A DNA stretch of 64,000 nucleotides, taken from the NCBI RefSeq assembly GCF_054482525.1, contig NZ_JBTHVG010000004.1. One strand, given 5' to 3'. The notes under the pieces were generated by a model. It did no database searches and was not told where the DNA came from. It was given only the letters and a program-made list of their open reading frames with translations. Both the position numbers and the translations under genes were made by a program. Of this stretch, positions 3,416 through 64,000 are shown piece after piece. How positions within the stretch are numbered: the stretch's first letter is position 1; each line of letters opens with the position of its first letter. The stretch comes from a plasmid.

Positions 3416-3768
3416 TTTACTCCCCCGCTCCGGCGGGGGTATGGCCTGCCAGGCCGCCGGAAAACCCTGGCAGGCTTACGCCTGCCTGAAATGCAGGAGG
3501 GCCGCGCCTGCGGCGCTGCCCTTCCTGCCCGTCATGGTGTGAGGCATTTTTCTGTTATGTCGTTTCTGTTGTTCTGATTTCCGGAGGCGGGGACACCTTC
3601 GGCTCCCGGCTGCCTGGCGGCATCCGGTCGTCAGGCCCGACTCCGACAGGCAGCTGCTGGCGCACCCGCCAGTCTCCGCCGAACCCGCTGGCGCGGTTTC
3701 GGGCTGCCGCTACGGTCCGATGTCTGAAAAACCAGGCTTGCAGCGACCGTTCCGGTCGCGCCGCCCCT

Positions 3769-4105
3769 GTCGCGCCGGAAACGGCGCTCCCTGCACACCT
3801 GACGGTGTGTAAGGCCACTGCGCCTGATGGCGCAGTCAACCCTTCCGCCGCCACCCCTGCGGCCTGTTTCCCGCTGTGGACTTTCCGGGGGCTGGAGTAA
3901 CCACATCCCGTTTCAGCAGTCCAGGGGAAGATATACCGTCCACAAAATTTTTAGCCATAAACCCGGCAAAAAATTTTGCGTCCGCCCCCGGACAGCTGCC
4001 CCGTGACGTGGTGACGGACGCCCCATCGGAAAGGTCCACTGCGGGGAGAAACCCCGAAGAAGTGGACGGCAGAAGGGGCTTTCGCCCCTCCGGGGAGCAA
4101 CCGGT
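3769..4105 (+). promoter_or_regulatory. Frpo/ssi-like repeat, copy I (non-coding, hairpin-forming)
   Basis: About 335 bp, repeated at 6635-6965. It contains a roughly 160-nt imperfect hairpin: ggactttcc (3878-3886) pairs with ggaaaggtcc (4028-4037), with an inner caaaattttt/aaaaattttg stem. It ends 39 nt before the ORF at 4144. Confidence 0.65.
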
Positions 4106-4143
4106 CGGCCCGGCGACCTGATTCAGCAGAAGGAGACGTTTTC

Positions 4144-4578
4144 ATGACTGTCAGCAGCACGATTTCCGTTTTTTGCCGCGACGGGGTGTTCCGTACCGTT
4201 TACTGCCACCTGCACGGTGAGCCGACCTGGAACGGTCGCATCCTGCATACCCACTATGCCACCGGTCAGCAGGCCGAAGCCCTGGTTGAACACGGTGATA
4301 TCCGTTGCCTCGGTCCCCGTTGCGACAAACCCGCCGGGCATACGCTTCAGAACCCGGTGGACGGTGTGACGGCTTATTACGGACGTGACAGTGGTTTCCG
4401 GATGGACAGTGAGGCGCGTGAGTACCGTTCTTTCAGGGAGGCTATTGCCACTGAAAGCACTGAAGAGGTGCGCTTCCATTATGTGTTCATCGACGGCTAC
4501 TGGAAGGTGATGTACCGCACGCCGGAAGGCTGGAAGATGAAAGCGCTCGCGCTGGCACTGCGTCGCTGTCCGAAATGA
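4144..4578 (+). CDS. Leading-region hypothetical protein (144 aa)
   Basis: ORF with a GGAGA sequence 8 nt upstream of the ATG, immediately downstream of Frpo-like copy I. No domain recognised. Confidence 0.65.
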   Translation: MTVSSTISVFCRDGVFRTVYCHLHGEPTWNGRILHTHYATGQQAEALVEHGDIRCLGPRCDKPAGHTLQNPVDGVTAYYGRDSGFRMDSEAREYRSFREAIATESTEEVRFHYVFIDGYWKVMYRTPEGWKMKALALALRRCPK

Positions 4579-4583
4579 AAAAA

Positions 4584-4604
4584 GGCAGGGCGATAAACCC
4601 TGCC
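4584..4604 (+). terminator. Stem-loop after the 144-aa ORF
   Basis: ggcaggg-cgataaa-ccctgcc hairpin 6 nt after the stop codon. The following T-tract is weak. Confidence 0.45.
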
Positions 4605-4670
4605 TCTCTCCGCCGGCGCTTCCCCGCCAGGAAGTCCGGCATCTCAATCACTATCTATGGAGATTATGCC

Positions 4671-4937
4671 ATGAGACCATCAATTATCTTCGCAACCGCC
4701 GAGTATGTAAAGCGTCTGCGTGAAGAGTGCCTGCGGGAGAATAAACCCCTGCACCGCCATACCCGCTTCAGACGTCAGGAGCTGGCACAGGATGAGATTA
4801 ACCCGGACGTCCTGGCGATGAGCGGCCATATCGCCAGACGCTGCAGTGAGCAGAAGCGGGTGCGTATCCCCGCTATGAAAGTCAGCGAATGGGGCCACCT
4901 GCTCCGCGCGCTTGAAATTGAGCGGGTCTGCCACTGA
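4671..4937 (+). CDS. Leading-region hypothetical protein (88 aa)
   Basis: The ATG at 4671 is preceded by GGAGA. The track start at 4575 would read through the hairpin at 4584-4604. The protein is basic and has no recognised domain. Confidence 0.55.
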   Translation: MRPSIIFATAEYVKRLREECLRENKPLHRHTRFRRQELAQDEINPDVLAMSGHIARRCSEQKRVRIPAMKVSEWGHLLRALEIERVCH

Positions 4938-5001
4938 TTAACCCTTGCCGTCTGCCTGTGCAGGCGGCAGGATACGTTCAGACATCTCACCAGGAGGAAC
5001 C

Positions 5002-5892
5002 GTGAGTAAGAAGAAAACCACCACGACGCCCACGCCGCATGATGCCGCGTTCCGGTCGTTCCTGGCGAATCCCGACGTCGCCAGAGATTTTCTGGAACTG
5101 CATCTTCCGGCGGAGTACCGGCAGTTGTGCGACCTGTCCACGCTGAAGCTGGAACCCGCCACCTTTGTTGAGCCGGACCTGCATCAGTACGCCAGCGATA
5201 TCCTCTGGAGTGTGAAAACCACCGGGGGTGAAGACGGCTATGTTTATACGCTCATCGAGCACCAGAGCACCGAAAATCTGTACATGCCTTTCCGCATGTT
5301 ACGTTACAGTGTGGCGGCGATGCAGAGACATCTGGAGCAGCACAAAACGTTGCCACTGGTGATTCCTGTGCTGTTCTATCATGGTGAGCGCAGCCCGTAC
5401 CCGTACAGCATGAACTGGCTGGACTGTTTTGAGAATCCGGCACTTGCGGCTAAAATATACACAAAGCCGTTTCCGCTGGTTGATATCACTGTCGTTGATG
5501 ACAATGAAATCATGAACCATCGCCGGATGGCCGCACTGACGCTGCTGATGAAGCATATCCGCCATCGTGACATGATGGATCTGCTGGACAAACTCCCGCA
5601 GGTCATGGTGGAAATTTCAGACGAGCAGGTGCGTGTTCTGATTCATTACATCGTTAACGCAGGGGACTCTGTATCACCGGAATTTATGCGGGCGCTGGCT
5701 GAGCGTCTGCCGCAGCATGAGGATAAACTGATGACTATCGCAGAACGTCTTGAGCAAAAAGGTCGCCAGGAAGGAGCGCTTGAAAAAGCCCTGGCTATTG
5801 CGTGCCAGCTTCAGAAAATGGGGATGACGCCGGAGCAGATTAAGCAGGCTACCGGACTTTCCGAAGCTGAACTGAAAAAAATCATTCACTGA
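5002..5892 (+). CDS. Rpn-family (YhgA-like, PD-(D/E)XK) recombination-promoting nuclease
   Basis: GTG at 5002 with AGGAGG at 4993-4998. It has the PHDAAFRSF N-terminus and the D...IEHQS nuclease core typical of RpnA-E/YhgA proteins, plus the helical C-terminal domain KLMTIAERLEQKGRQEG. Confidence 0.8.
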   Translation: MSKKKTTTTPTPHDAAFRSFLANPDVARDFLELHLPAEYRQLCDLSTLKLEPATFVEPDLHQYASDILWSVKTTGGEDGYVYTLIEHQSTENLYMPFRMLRYSVAAMQRHLEQHKTLPLVIPVLFYHGERSPYPYSMNWLDCFENPALAAKIYTKPFPLVDITVVDDNEIMNHRRMAALTLLMKHIRHRDMMDLLDKLPQVMVEISDEQVRVLIHYIVNAGDSVSPEFMRALAERLPQHEDKLMTIAERLEQKGRQEGALEKALAIACQLQKMGMTPEQIKQATGLSEAELKKIIH

Positions 5893-5903
5893 TGAGAGCA
5901 TCA

Positions 5904-5930
5904 CAGCCCGGCAAAATGCCGGGCTTTTTT
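5904..5930 (+). terminator. Rho-independent terminator after rpn
   Basis: agcccggc-aaaat-gccgggct followed by tttttt. Confidence 0.8.
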
Positions 5931-5954
5931 GTCAGCAGGAGCAGAGAAAACAGT

Positions 5955-6149
5955 ATGACGCTTGCAGAACGTCTTATACAGAAAGGTTTCGACGAAGGTT
6001 TTAAAGAAGGTTTTAAGAAAGGTGCGCTTGAAGTGGCGCGGGAAGCAGCCTGCCGGCTGCGGGATATGGGCTGGACGCCGGAACGGATTCAGGAGGCGAC
6101 CGGACTTTCCGGTGAAGAACTGAAAAAGCTGTTTCCTGATGAGCAGTAG
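5955..6149 (+). CDS. Free-standing Rpn C-terminal-domain homologue (64 aa)
   Basis: MTLAERLIQKGFDEG...MGWTPERIQEATGLSGEELKKL aligns by eye with the last ~55 aa of the upstream Rpn protein (MTIAERLEQKGRQEG...MGMTPEQIKQATGLSEAELKKI). It starts after the rpn terminator. Its Shine-Dalgarno sequence is weak. Confidence 0.6.
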   Translation: MTLAERLIQKGFDEGFKEGFKKGALEVAREAACRLRDMGWTPERIQEATGLSGEELKKLFPDEQ

Positions 6150-6179
6150 CCTGACATTCTGCCAGGCTGTGAATCACGC

Positions 6180-6431
6180 TCACACATTCCCTGCCGTTTC
6201 CCCCAGTTCATTTTCCAGACGCCTGATGATATCTGCCTTGCGCATCCCCTGCATGTGAGGCAGCAGGTCACGGACTGAAAGTGCCTGGGTGGTCCTCCAG
6301 ACGGTGACGTCCACCTGTTCCGCATTTTCCCAGGCGTGCCATGTTCTCTGCGTCACGCCAAATTCTCTGGCCGCTTTTTCGCGTGACCATAGCATGCTTT
6401 TTCGCCAGATTCGCAGTTCCCAGCCGGTCAT
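6180..6431 (-). CDS. Small helix-turn-helix (XRE-like) DNA-binding protein (83 aa)
   Basis: ORF with an HTH-like segment (REKAAREFGVTQRTWHAWEN). It is divergent from two palindromic boxes. Confidence 0.6.
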   Translation of the reverse strand: MTGWELRIWRKSMLWSREKAAREFGVTQRTWHAWENAEQVDVTVWRTTQALSVRDLLPHMQGMRKADIIRRLENELGETAGNV

Positions 6432-6445
6432 AAAACACCTTTGAA

Positions 6446-6466
6446 AAAGTGAAAAAACTTCACTTT
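6446..6466. promoter_or_regulatory. Palindromic operator-like box 1 (AAAGTGAA-N5-TTCACTTT)
   Basis: Perfect 8-bp arms, 15 bp upstream of the HTH gene start. Confidence 0.5.
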
Positions 6467-6512
6467 ATTTTATCATCACAATTGCCAAATCAGCGCGATA
6501 AATAAGTGTAAA

Positions 6513-6533
6513 AAAGTGAAGAAATTTCACTTT
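6513..6533. promoter_or_regulatory. Palindromic operator-like box 2 (AAAGTGAA-N5-TTCACTTT)
   Basis: Same arms as box 1, with centres 67 bp apart, in an AT-rich intergenic region. Confidence 0.5.
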
Positions 6534-6634
6534 TTTTGTTTGTAAGTGTCGTGCGGTTTTCTCTGTTTTCACCTGTGCGGGAGTGGTGTGCCAGTGACCA
6601 CCACATGCCATTGTTGTGCCGTCGTTTTTCTTCA

Positions 6635-6965
6635 GTCGCGCCGGATGCGGCGCTCCCTGCACACCTTACGGTGTGTAAGGCCACTGCGCCTGATGGCGCA
6701 GCTGTCTCTTGCCTGTCTGCCGCCGCACTGCGGCCTGTTCTCCGCAGACGGACTTTCCGGGGGTACATACACGACCACATCCCGTTTCAGTCGTCCAGGG
6801 GAGAGATGTACCAGCCACAAAACTTTTTGCCGCTGGCGTCAAAAACTTTTGCGTCTGCCCCCGGACAACTGCCCCGTGACGTGGTGAGCGTCCCCCGTCG
6901 GAAAGGTCCACTGCGGGGAAATACCCTAAGACCCGGACGGCAGAAGGAGCTTCGCTCCTCCGGGA
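6635..6965 (+). promoter_or_regulatory. Frpo/ssi-like repeat, copy II
   Basis: Aligns with 3769-4105 along its whole length by eye. The equivalent hairpin runs from 6750-6758 to 6900-6909. It ends about 45 nt before the ORF at 7012. Confidence 0.65.
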
Positions 6966-7011
6966 AATGACCTGGCTGACCCGGCAGTCGTGACGATGAG
7001 GAGACAATGTG

Positions 7012-7860
7012 ATGAATCAGACTTTACCCACTGCTGACCTGAATACTGCCGGCACGACAGATGTTATTCCGTCTGTGGCTATCGACCGCATCATCGCGCA
7101 GCGTAACGAAGGTATTGCACTATTCATGCAGGCGATGGAATGCCTGGCGACAGCGCGCAGGATTCTGCTCGATGCGTCAGGTGATATTTTTCTTTACGGG
7201 TTTGAAGACTGCGTGACTGATTCCGTTCGTCGCATGGATAAGCCGGAAGAAGCGAAAAGGAATATCACCCGTCTTGCCGACCGGAAAATCTGGGACCGCC
7301 TGATGACAGATACGGGCATGTACACCTTCATGAGTTCATGCCAGCGTGATGAGTGGAACAGCCAGCTGATGAGCGACACCTGTCCTGAAATCACCCTGGA
7401 CAATGTACTGGCAACATTCCGCCATCTTAATACCAGCAAGATGCAGACGTTTGAACAGGGACTGATTGATGTCTACCGGAAATTGTCATGGGATTACAGA
7501 ACCAATAATCCCTGCCGTCTGGGCAAGAAAATCATTATTGAAAACATGCTGTACCGCTGGAGTAACGGGCGTGTGACGCTGGACTGCAGCGGACGGGAGG
7601 CACTGGATGACCTGGTACGTCCTTTTTATCTGCTGGAGGGGCGAAACGTTCCTGACTTCCGGAGCAGCATCGGGGCGCAGTATGGTGAATTTCTCGGGAA
7701 CGGCGACAACGTCGGTAAGCTGTTAGAAGGGGAATATTTTACGGTGCGTGGCTACCAGAAAGGGACCGTACACATTGTCTTTAAGCGTCCTGACCTTGTT
7801 GAAAAACTGAATGATATTATTGCACGGCATTATCCTGGTGCATTGCCGCCACGAGTCTGA
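7012..7860 (+). CDS. DUF4942-like leading-region protein (282 aa)
   Basis: ATG at 7012 with GAGGAG 8 nt upstream. The family call comes from recollection of DUF4942 proteins in leading regions and CP4-type islands, so it is moderately certain. Confidence 0.6.
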   Translation: MNQTLPTADLNTAGTTDVIPSVAIDRIIAQRNEGIALFMQAMECLATARRILLDASGDIFLYGFEDCVTDSVRRMDKPEEAKRNITRLADRKIWDRLMTDTGMYTFMSSCQRDEWNSQLMSDTCPEITLDNVLATFRHLNTSKMQTFEQGLIDVYRKLSWDYRTNNPCRLGKKIIIENMLYRWSNGRVTLDCSGREALDDLVRPFYLLEGRNVPDFRSSIGAQYGEFLGNGDNVGKLLEGEYFTVRGYQKGTVHIVFKRPDLVEKLNDIIARHYPGALPPRV

Positions 7861-17248: not shown

Positions 17249-17419
17249 ATAAAAGGATTGTTGCAGATACGAAAGTCGTTAGAATAGCCGCGGACGCTTG
17301 AGGCTGTATGCCGAAAGCGTTTTGTGGATGGTATACAGCAGAAAGCCCCCTGGAGATTTTTTATCAATCAACCAGGGGCTCTACTGTAATGCCTAGACAA
17401 CATTATAGTAGCCTGATAA
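17249..17419 (+). repeat. Duplicated, truncated copy of the pnd promoter/leader
   Basis: 171 bp matching 18670-18840, with 8 substitutions and two 1-nt indels by hand alignment. It includes TTGTTG-16 bp-TAGAAT (17258-17285) and the first 10 pndC-like codons, then diverges. Confidence 0.85.
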
Positions 17420-17461
17420 TTTAGATATGTGTACATCCTACCGGAAAAGATACTTTTCAGG

Positions 17462-18669: not shown

Positions 18670-18840
18670 ATAAAAGGATTGTTACAGATACGAAAGTCGT
18701 TAGAATAGCTGCGGGCGCTTGAGGCTGTATGCCGAAAGCGTTTTGTGGACGGTATACAGCAGAAAGCCCCTGGAGATTTTTTTATCAATCAACCAAGGGC
18801 TCTACTGTAATGCCTCAACAACATTATAGTAGCCCGATAA
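18670..18840 (+). repeat. pnd promoter/leader (intact copy)
   Basis: The partner of 17249-17419. It continues into pndC and pndA. Confidence 0.85.
18760..18820 (-). ncRNA. pndB: PndB (Sok-like) antisense RNA, approximate limits
   Basis: Minus-strand TTGCCT-17 bp-TACTAT (-10 at 18826-18831), antisense to the pndC start. A terminator-like stem (agcccttgg/ccaggggct) lies downstream. The limits are inferred by analogy with hok/sok. Confidence 0.5.
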
Positions 18841-19013
18841 CCGCCGGAAGGCAATGGAGGGGCTATGATGCCACAGCGAACGTTTTTAATGATGTTAATC
18901 GTCGTCTGTGTGACGATTCTGTGTTTTGTCTGGATGGTGAGGGATTCGCTTTGCGGACTCCGGCTCCAGCAGGGAAACACAGTGCTTGTGGCAACGTTAG
19001 CCTACGAAGTTAA
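18810..19013 (+). CDS. pndC: PndC (Mok-like overlapping reading frame)
   Basis: The ATG at 18810 opens a frame that overlaps pndA, as in hok/mok-type loci. Confidence 0.6.
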   Translation: MPQQHYSSPITAGRQWRGYDATANVFNDVNRRLCDDSVFCLDGEGFALRTPAPAGKHSACGNVSLRS

Positions 19014-19343: not shown

Positions 19344-19496
19344 CGGATTTTCTCTCTGTATTTATGGGTAGTTATCGAACTGAATGTGCCAGTTTTTTCA
19401 GGAGACGGCAAAGTTGAGATGATTGGTTCTGATTCAAAGCATGAGTTTCCCCGGTGTGACGGGCATGTCGGGCGGATTTTGAGAAACAACAGATGT

Positions 19497-19527
19497 AAAA
19501 AAACCGACTGGTGAGGTCGGTTTTTTT
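19497..19527. terminator. Bidirectional rho-independent terminator
   Basis: aaaaaaa-ccgac-tggtgag-gtcgg-ttttttt. It has a U-tract when read on either strand. Confidence 0.85.
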
Positions 19528-19583
19528 ACTGTTCCGTTACAGAGTGGGTGGCTCTGGTCGGAAAAGAACTGTCTATAACTGAC
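19497..19583 (-). ncRNA. Predicted AgrB/IstR-like antitoxin sRNA (~85 nt)
   Basis: A minus-strand promoter (TTGCAG 19618-19613, 17-bp spacer, TACTAT 19595-19590) places the transcription start near 19583. The first 32 nt are complementary to 19740-19771 (31 Watson-Crick pairs plus 1 G-U). It ends at the terminator at 19497-19527. Confidence 0.6.
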
Positions 19584-62913: not shown

Positions 62914-63232
62914 CTAAAAACGCTATCACTGAGTTCCTACGCTCATTGGTGATAGCCCAGACGGGGGTAGGAATACCGGCGTCATCGGAAACCGGCCAGG
63001 CTAATGCCTGCCCCGCCTGAGCTACCATAGATGACGACAAGAAATACAAGTTCCTGTCTTTATGGTATGGCAAAAAACGACGCCAAATGAAGAAATTAAC
63101 TTCTGCGCCGACGATGACTACGCGGGTTCCTACGCCCGATCACAGTTTTGCCTGTGACCAGTAAAGGGTACTTAGTATAACGCACCGAGTCAACTAACAG
63201 CTTAAAAAACATACAAAAAAGCGTCAAAACTT

Positions 63233-63700: not shown

Positions 63701-63892
63701 GTTGTAATGCTTTTCAAATTAACGTAAAGCGGGTATATTTCGGCTGTTATTAGCTGTGCAGAGGGTGGCACTCTGTGGAGCAAAGCGGCGAAAGTCGGAC
63801 GGCAGAATGCGCCATAAGGCATTCAGGAGAGATGGCATGTACGGGCAGTAAGTCAGAAGACTGAAGATGTTCCGGAAGCCATAAAAGGAAAA

Positions 63893-63943
63893 CCCCCACT
63901 ATCTTTCTTACGAACTTGGCGGAACGACGAAAGATAGTGGGGG
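63893..63943 (-). terminator. Strong hairpin terminator (candidate CIS terminator of the rep operon)
   Basis: Perfect 15-bp stem, cccccactatctttc / gaaagatagtggggg. In minus sense it is followed by ttttcctttt. Confidence 0.6.
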
Positions 63944-64000
63944 CCTCACAGAATACGGGTAAAGTATAATGAAACCGTACCAGAGATTCAACCCTGTGCA

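Follow-up and report, generated by a model that had tools for sequence, protein, structure and literature searches.

A free-standing RpnS-type mini-gene behind the Rpn nuclease gene of an IncI-type plasmid, likely the last unit of an array of alternative tail cassettes

The DNA considered here is a window of 64,000 nucleotides (nt) from contig NZ_JBTHVG010000004.1 of NCBI RefSeq assembly GCF_054482525.1, which belongs to an IncI-type conjugative plasmid, and the subject is a pair of neighboring genes on its + strand: the Rpn-family nuclease gene rpn (5002–5892) and a free-standing open reading frame (ORF) of 64 codons (5955–6149), called the mini-ORF below. Coordinates are window positions throughout, and L001–L020 are the labels of the plasmid and genome records that were compared. 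It has been reported that rpn genes have two products: RpnL, a toxic nuclease, and RpnS, its C-terminal domain made from an internal start, which binds and inhibits RpnL (Zhong et al. 2023, PMC10400941). DNA endonuclease activity, toxicity or phage defence is known for RpnA, RpnB and the plasmid-encoded RpnP2, the last of which defends against T-even phages (PMC10400941). The same study described separate downstream copies of RpnS, termed RpnSs, on chromosomes and plasmids (ypaA, which is RpnESs, and RpnCSs); the RpnESs/YpaA protein is detectable, RpnSs vary in their four-residue repeats, rpnSs genes can disappear through deletion or by becoming fused to the N-terminal domain, and in some species the separately encoded RpnS is annotated as DUF4351 (PF14261). 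The arrangement in the window is therefore already known in kind, and stand-alone RpnS genes, which the sequence-only reading of this DNA had offered as a novel prospect, are not new, plasmids included. No paper on RpnSs function later than Zhong et al. 2023 was found within the limited collection searched. As argued below, the mini-ORF is likely an rpnSs-type gene that closes a tandem array of alternative tail cassettes lying behind a single rpn body.

The nuclease gene, also named ygdB, starts at GTG 5002 behind AGGAGG (4992–4997), stops with TGA at 5890–5892 and encodes 296 residues; its anti-Shine-Dalgarno (anti-SD) duplex of −10.3 kcal/mol ranks in the top 1% among the ATG contexts of the window. 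The reading made from the letters alone had given the same start and length, with a strong AGGAGG and the hallmarks of an Rpn/YhgA PD-(D/E)XK nuclease, and all of this holds: the protein matches Pfam PF04754 (Transposase_31/YhgA-like) with E = 3e-78 over profile positions 1–197 of 203, scores 177 bits against NCBIfam TIGR01784 (Rpn family), where the cutoff is 52, and is called "Rpn family nuclease" by the Prokaryotic Genome Annotation Pipeline (PGAP). Its similarity extends to the RpnA and RpnC equivalog models, and the motif SD(I/V)LWSV...IEHQS, present in the window as SDILWSV, is common to K-12 RpnA, RpnB and RpnE, with RpnC carrying the variant TDVLYSV. PADLOC, which in version 2.0 is without an Rpn model, gave no hits. 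The tail of this nuclease is referred to as cassette B. At codon 244 (ATG 5731) the sequence MTIAERL opens, preceded at a distance of 7 nt by GAGGA (5719–5723), whose duplex of −6.1 kcal/mol ends 6–7 nt 5′ of the ATG; the window rpn thus has the Shine-Dalgarno (SD) sequence and the in-frame ATG needed for a matched RpnS of its own, and an intragenic RpnS-B of 53 residues (5719–5892, + strand) is predicted as its presumed cognate antitoxin.

An intrinsic terminator at 5905–5931 (+ strand) lies between rpn and the mini-ORF, with a 9-bp stem of 7 GC pairs spanning 5905–5925, a loop of 3 and a run of six T; a homologous terminator follows every non-terminal cassette in the related plasmids. The mini-ORF, which runs from ATG 5955 to TAG 6149 and is separated from rpn by 62 nt, encodes a protein of the RpnS family and is itself tail cassette C. 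BLASTP against Rpn residues 244–294 gives 33/59 identities with one 8-residue gap (E = 1e-16), far beyond chance, which bears out the claim that a separate 64-codon ORF homologous to the Rpn C-terminal domain follows the terminator. It is, however, not a copy of the nuclease's own C-terminal domain, as had been supposed, and is instead a diverged paralogous tail: identity to the adjacent fused tail B is 56% by BLASTP and 62% by global alignment, and the mini-protein has three four-residue repeats against one in the fused tail of the window. These repeats, of the form F-D/K-E/K-G, are encoded by a 12-nt tandem repeat at 5980–6023 (+ strand), for which Tandem Repeats Finder reports a period of 12 and 2.8–3.7 copies. 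DNA similarity between the two tails sets in precisely at the ATGs (5731 and 5955) and runs to a TGATGAG that both contain; alignment of the flanks, as would reveal a larger duplicated unit or a carried-over ribosome-binding site, did not rise significantly above shuffles, with P = 0.14 for the sequence 5′ of the ATG and P = 0.05 for that beyond TGATGAG.

Translation signals of the mini-ORF are modest. The SD-like AGGAG at 5937–5941 (+ strand), a motif kept 5′ of all free cassettes, forms a duplex of −6.6 kcal/mol and ends 12–13 nt before ATG 5955, a sub-optimal spacing, in agreement with the earlier remark that this SD is weak. Public annotations start the gene either at 5955 (64 residues) or at ATG 5892 (85 residues); the longer reading, called by PGAP, was rejected because ATG 5892 has no SD (+0.4 kcal/mol) and because L002, L005, L008 and L009 do not keep the frame upstream of ATG 5955. 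Recent PGAP runs name the product "RpnC/YadD family protein" and older runs a hypothetical protein. As for the fold, TIGR01784 positions 218–273 match the C-terminal part of the mini-protein (E = 1.4e-7), and a profile of tails matches the sequence of the RpnA-S crystal structure, the three-helix bundle PDB 7TH0 (E = 8e-8). The AlphaFold (AF2) model of the mini-protein is helical (predicted local distance difference test, pLDDT, 74), with four helical segments and a low-confidence break in the repeat tract, and 7TH0 is also its top PDB match in Foldseek, with a template modeling (TM) score of 0.70 normalized to the target, a match that is not significant (E = 2.2) for so small a protein. A single-sequence PDB search of the mini-protein returned repeat proteins only (DotG, designed repeats), which reflects low complexity and is not meaningful. 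PF14261 (DUF4351) was not reported by the local Pfam scan of the mini-ORF, and homologues of the mini-protein carry the precomputed label PF27070.

When a dozen loci of related plasmids were read side by side, each was found to consist of one conserved nuclease body and one to three tail cassettes, of which only the first is fused to the body. The start of the cassettes is conserved as ATGAC-N4-GCAGAACGTCTT, encoding M-T-I/L-A-E-R-L, which is the internal-start sequence; each cassette has its own 12-nt repeat tract, and the repeat type is QGIQ in A, EGR(Q/M) in B and EGFK in C. After each non-terminal cassette comes the same spacer, made up of TGATGAG, the terminator hairpin, CAGCAGGAGCAGAGAAAACAGT and the next ATG. 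In these loci and in a census made by tblastn over complete plasmids, four architectures were seen: A fused with C free (L002, L005, L008); A fused with B and C free (L003 and no fewer than 8 others that share its span of about 850 nt); B fused with C free (this window, L001, L006, L007, L009); and C fused with none free (at least 15 IncI-gamma plasmids from Shigella sonnei or E. coli, besides R621a, NC_015965.1). All sampled loci that keep the free cassette C have it directly downstream on the same strand, and in L003 the first free cassette equals the fused tail of the window Rpn. In R621a (L018, 616–1539), and likewise in L019, the rpn body continues in frame into cassette C to give a protein of 307 residues, and the fused tail of this type is 94.6–96.4% identical to cassette C of the window in an alignment of 48 residues of body end plus cassette C. 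This body–C fusion had first been judged an assembly artefact, the only match in the protein database being P0258 from the N-gapped draft scaffold L017; that judgment was overturned by the tblastn census. Because the same body stands with A|C, A|B|C, B|C or fused C in related plasmids, the locus is a tail-cassette array.

The junctions of the natural variants suggest how one architecture passes into another. Fused cassettes start with ATGACTATC/T, or with ATGACACTG in the tail-A type (L002, L008), and free cassettes mostly start with ATGACG(A/C)TT, the exceptions being cassette C of L003 and the free cassette of the pESI plasmid L004, which start with ATGACTATT. The fused C of R621a shows ATGACTATC first and then C-specific sequence, and the crossover therefore lies within the shared GCAGAACGTCTT. 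Both the B- and the C-fusions keep the body-linked codons ACT ATC at the junction, and both fused forms, C and B, look as if they had arisen from longer arrays by deletion. Two mosaics indicate that cassettes also exchange sequence internally. The tail of L006 is B-type in its 5′ part and A-type at its 3′ end; similarly, an unannotated free cassette of 70 residues in L004, a pESI-like plasmid of S. Infantis (2616–2828), is identical over its first two thirds to its own fused tail minus one repeat and has a C-like end (ELKKLFAD), a pattern that points to gene conversion between fused and free cassettes. Free cassette and fused tail share 93% identity in the pESI-like plasmids, where the free cassette does cluster with its own upstream RpnS.

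Two further records carry cassette-like ORFs in other settings. In L010 (NZ_CP045763.1, 1–1650), insertion of ISCro1 (IS66-family) has eliminated rpn together with codons 1–14 of the mini-ORF, so that the cassette is truncated. On an Arsenophonus plasmid (L012, 1501–1722) there is an RpnS-like ORF of 73 residues with QEGI-type repeats and no Rpn N-terminal domain within 1.5 kb on either side; the comparison with other plasmids, suggested earlier as a check, thus does yield a free-standing RpnS-like ORF that occurs without a neighboring rpn.

The locus is widespread and its free cassette is well preserved. It occurs in 2,041 PLSDB plasmids; the mini-protein matches 2,100 plasmid records, 2,092 of them (>99%) with at least 80% in-frame coverage, and about 2,000 plasmid records match cassette C at 60% identity or more. 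At the DNA level, 1,340 of the 5,426 complete E. coli genomes carry cassette C, at 2,649 places, of which 2,619 are on plasmids and 30 on chromosomes. A HMMER scan of 1.84 billion cluster representatives produced many homologues of 50–100 residues, and no homologue of the mini-protein was found in the phage records searched. In sequenced loci the free cassette measures 52, 56, 60, 64, 68 or 76 residues, corresponding to 0–6 copies of the 12-nt unit; a 72-residue form is known from database matches only (protein P0062 and 216-nt matches). Outside the repeats, seven IncI sequences differ by 10 synonymous and 3 non-synonymous changes, where about 75% non-synonymous changes would be expected under neutrality (binomial P = 1.3e-4); so far as a small sample can show, the free cassette C is under purifying selection. 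The same start Met and an intact ORF are found in the pESI lineage, at 78% DNA identity, and in the IncK2/Z and IncB/O types. No N-terminal remnant of an rpn was found by tblastn near 5893–6500 or elsewhere in the window. Judged by these sequence comparisons, cassette C is not a decaying pseudogene, and the mini-ORF is probably an RpnSs gene expressed at a low level: its intactness and the signs of purifying selection argue for translation, but the poor SD spacing and the position behind a terminator argue that the level is low.

From these observations the following mechanism can be proposed. The cassette that is fused to the body would yield RpnL and its matched intragenic antitoxin RpnS, as expected from Zhong et al. 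2023 (PMC10400941). Recombination at short homology, within the first ~21 nt of the cassettes, deletes the units in between and gives the nuclease a new tail, as the natural variants attest, the orders seen being A|B|C, A|C, B|C (the window) and, in R621a, fused C by itself. Since each cassette brings its internal start along, a single event would swap the oligomerization domain and the intragenic antitoxin together. Meanwhile, the alternative tail in the free cassette would be maintained as a small RpnS-like protein, helical and probably made at a low level. For this C protein, RpnS-type helical dimerization with a C-type tail is the most likely biochemical activity, and inhibition of the adjacent B-tailed nuclease is less likely. 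A tail-cassette array is the reading that accounts for all the observations.

The wider setting of the locus can be described as follows. In the nearest record psiB, psiA and ardA lie upstream of it and MobC, nikA, nikB and trbC downstream, and the local gene order in R64-style names is ygcA, ygdA, ygdB (rpn), the unnamed mini-ORF, ygeA, ygfB, yggA and nikA. The first gene 5′ of rpn on the same strand listed here is ygcA (4144–4578, +), encoding a hypothetical protein of 144 residues and annotated in L001 and L020; ygdA (4671–4937, +), directly 5′ of rpn, encodes a hypothetical protein of 88 residues and corresponds to the L001 coding sequence 5772–6038 at an offset of 1101. Apart from ygeA, yggA and trbC, the local and neighboring genes are oriented to oriT. 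At 3760–4110 (− strand), 5′ of the ygcA–ygdA–rpn operon, lies a predicted hairpin promoter of the Frpo/ssi type: folded as single-stranded DNA (ssDNA), the transferred strand reaches −109.6 kcal/mol (z = −9.1 against shuffles), and a second copy of the element, 81% identical, lies at 6635–6964 and precedes a DUF4942 gene (7009–7860). Such single-strand promoters have been mapped on the IncI1 plasmid pESBL; a value below −75 kcal/mol per 300 nt is the criterion used for ssDNA promoters, and class-1 ssi promoters are present in IncI1 plasmids (PMC12672017). The element at 3760–4110 fits this class. The earlier placement of the locus on the early strand of the leading region is therefore sound, given the orientation of the genes to oriT and the strong ssDNA hairpin with its 81% copy.

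Several side observations concern the same plasmid. The convergent gene ygeA (6180–6431, −), which abuts the mini-ORF, encodes an 83-residue helix-turn-helix regulator with a weak PADLOC match to mad1 (E = 0.003), and a 65-residue ORF upstream of it (6465–6662, −) is annotated in some records only. An Rfam scan of 4000–7000 returned no families. Elsewhere in the window Rfam matches two sok-type antitoxin RNAs, AgrB antisense RNA, C4 antisense RNA and the repZ regulatory pseudoknot, at 17292–17449, 18713–18870, 19495–19582, 62945–63032 and 63885–64000, all consistent with an IncI backbone. In a study of IncI1 plasmids and phage-type change, ibfA and other genes were implicated, not rpn (PMC8004404).

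Three other explanations of the mini-ORF, which had been listed when the locus was first read, have to be weighed against a tail-cassette array. The most direct is that the free protein is an extra antitoxin acting in trans, which would bind the adjacent B-tailed RpnL and supplement the intragenic RpnS, for instance early after transfer. The mini-gene does adjoin rpn on the same strand and does belong to the RpnS family; the close match of free and fused cassettes in pESI-like plasmids (93%) fits this explanation, as does the K-12 precedent YpaA/RpnESs, which is 82% identical to RpnES and is made as protein (PMC10400941). However, RpnS inhibition is specific: RpnAS does not block RpnB, and a single extra four-residue repeat abolishes inhibition of RpnC (PMC10400941). 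Inhibition is paralogue-specific and is lost with a single-repeat mismatch, the rule being that an antitoxin shares both tail sequence and repeat number with the toxin it inhibits (PMC10400941, PMC10400984). The two tails of the window are only 56–62% identical, with one repeat against three, and in seven plasmids the fused and free repeat numbers (1/3, 1/2, 2/6, 4/0, 5/4, 5/1) do not co-vary. Moreover, rpn is stably carried without a free cassette in L011 and in the R621a-type plasmids, a terminator stands between the two genes, and the window rpn has a well-placed internal SD and ATG for a matched RpnS of its own. Since the repeats do not co-vary and rpn exists without the cassette, a role as cognate antitoxin is unlikely, and the suggestion that the mini-ORF is the antitoxin of the adjacent nuclease is disfavored; we give it only a low chance of being correct.

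It has also been suggested that the mini-protein is an anti-defence decoy, made early in the recipient to neutralize a resident C-tailed Rpn, whether on an R621a-type plasmid or as a chromosomal paralogue. The position in the leading region, the orientation to oriT and the Frpo/ssi-type hairpin upstream would suit such a role, leading regions being enriched in anti-defence genes (PMC11541004), and the existence of a full-length C-tailed Rpn of the R621a type makes a matching target conceivable. Against this, the C-tailed Rpn is known only on related IncI plasmids, and related IncI plasmids are subject to entry exclusion and incompatibility. Cassette C is 50, 42, 34 and 32% identical to the tails of K-12 RpnA, RpnB, RpnC and RpnE, respectively, and with no value above 50% there is no support for a decoy directed against chromosomal Rpn of K-12. 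Chromosomes account for only 30 of the 2,649 places matched at the DNA level in E. coli, no phage-encoded homologue is known from the records searched, the repeat number would have to equal that of the target exactly, and the poorly spaced SD and the upstream terminator are ill suited to such a part; this role finds no positive support and is very unlikely. The remaining explanation takes the mini-ORF for a leftover, a displaced old tail, untranslated and free of selection, that survives only owing to the youth and close relatedness of IncI backbones. The idea that it is the remnant of a truncated rpn is right in its ancestry, cassette C being the fused tail in R621a-type plasmids, and weak translation signals, the position after the terminator, backbones that are 94–99% identical and so would show little decay, and the annotation of the K-12 analogue ypaA as a pseudogene in RefSeq are all compatible with it. 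The part that claims decay does not stand: the in-frame match is kept in >99% of 2,100 records, synonymous changes exceed non-synonymous ones by 10:3 (P = 1.3e-4), the intact ORF with the same start Met recurs in the 78%-identical pESI lineage and in IncK2/Z and IncB/O types, no degenerate rpn N-terminal sequence lies upstream, and the analogous YpaA protein is detectably made (PMC10400941). A mere leftover is accordingly hard to credit, and we rate its probability as very small.

A tail-cassette array with a low-level rpnSs gene at its end is also burdened by some points, which weigh against it. The test for selection covers seven IncI sequences and 13 changes, and occasional exchange with the fused tails, which are under selection, could mimic purifying selection on the free copy. 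Translation could be negligible, since AGGAG lies 13 nt from the ATG and the ORF is preceded, at 24 nt, by a strong terminator. Deletion-type switching is one-way, the value of the free cassettes as a reservoir is an inference, and the variants may simply have arisen, without selective value, from a repeat that is prone to recombine. The body–C form of R621a could likewise be ancestral, with A and B inserted later, but the junction codons favor deletion. A stronger proposal would be that the array is functional, a set of replacement modules kept in an arms race with phage or plasmid counter-factors, in which the terminators are read through on the ssDNA template and the free protein is made only during establishment; this is possible but rather improbable. 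If it were true, one short-homology recombination event would re-specify the oligomerization domain and the intragenic antitoxin at the same time.

The mini-ORF is a free-standing member of the RpnSs kind already described and does not reveal a new principle. Its interest lies in the setting: the Rpn toxin–antitoxin nucleases are a recently recognized family of phage defence whose specificity resides in a hypervariable tail, and about a quarter of complete E. coli genomes carry the plasmid locus. The locus forms a natural series in which the same nuclease body bears tail A, B or C together with 0, 1 or 2 free cassettes, and this series could show whether free cassettes act in trans and how tail switching occurs.

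Among known systems, the RpnSs of Zhong et al. are the closest. Like these, the mini-gene is a small gene on the same strand directly 3′ of rpn that encodes the RpnS domain from the Met of MT(I/L)AERL, has a variable number of four-residue repeats, located in the first helix, and occurs on plasmids, and loss by fusion to the N-terminal domain is seen here in the R621a-type plasmids. The K-12 gene ypaA (L013, 3817–4002), a pseudogene in RefSeq although its protein was detected by Zhong et al., differs in several respects. YpaA is 82% identical to the tail of RpnE, whereas cassette C reaches only 56–62% with the adjacent tail; ypaA lies 12 nt 3′ of rpnE with a strong SD and no terminator, whereas cassette C lies at 62 nt, behind a terminator and with a poorly spaced SD; and cassette C, unlike ypaA, can belong to a multi-cassette array, two free cassettes being present in L003. 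The published RpnESs and RpnCSs cluster with the RpnS of their own upstream gene (PMC10400941), but cassette C does not, with 62% identity to the adjacent tail and 59–63% to the tails of the pESI lineage.

The intragenic RpnS proteins (RpnAS, RpnBS, RpnCS, RpnP2S) belong to the same domain family, and 7TH0 is the best structural match of the helical fold predicted here; unlike them, the mini-ORF is not nested in the toxin gene and is mismatched to the neighboring toxin by the published specificity rule. The stand-alone small DUF4351 (PF14261) proteins are alike in being separately encoded RpnS, and many homologues of 50–100 residues exist. In its logic the array resembles Neisseria pilS/pilE and the pilV shufflon of IncI1 plasmids, in which there is one expressed body with alternative C-terminal segments nearby and recombination picks the one that is fused. 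However, the pilV shufflon uses the Rci recombinase and sfx sites, whereas the rpn array has no dedicated recombinase or specific sites; compared with such silent-cassette systems, the rpn array would change by deletion or gene conversion at 12–21 nt of homology, is seen to do so between plasmid lineages only, and stores its cassettes as complete ORFs with start codons of their own.

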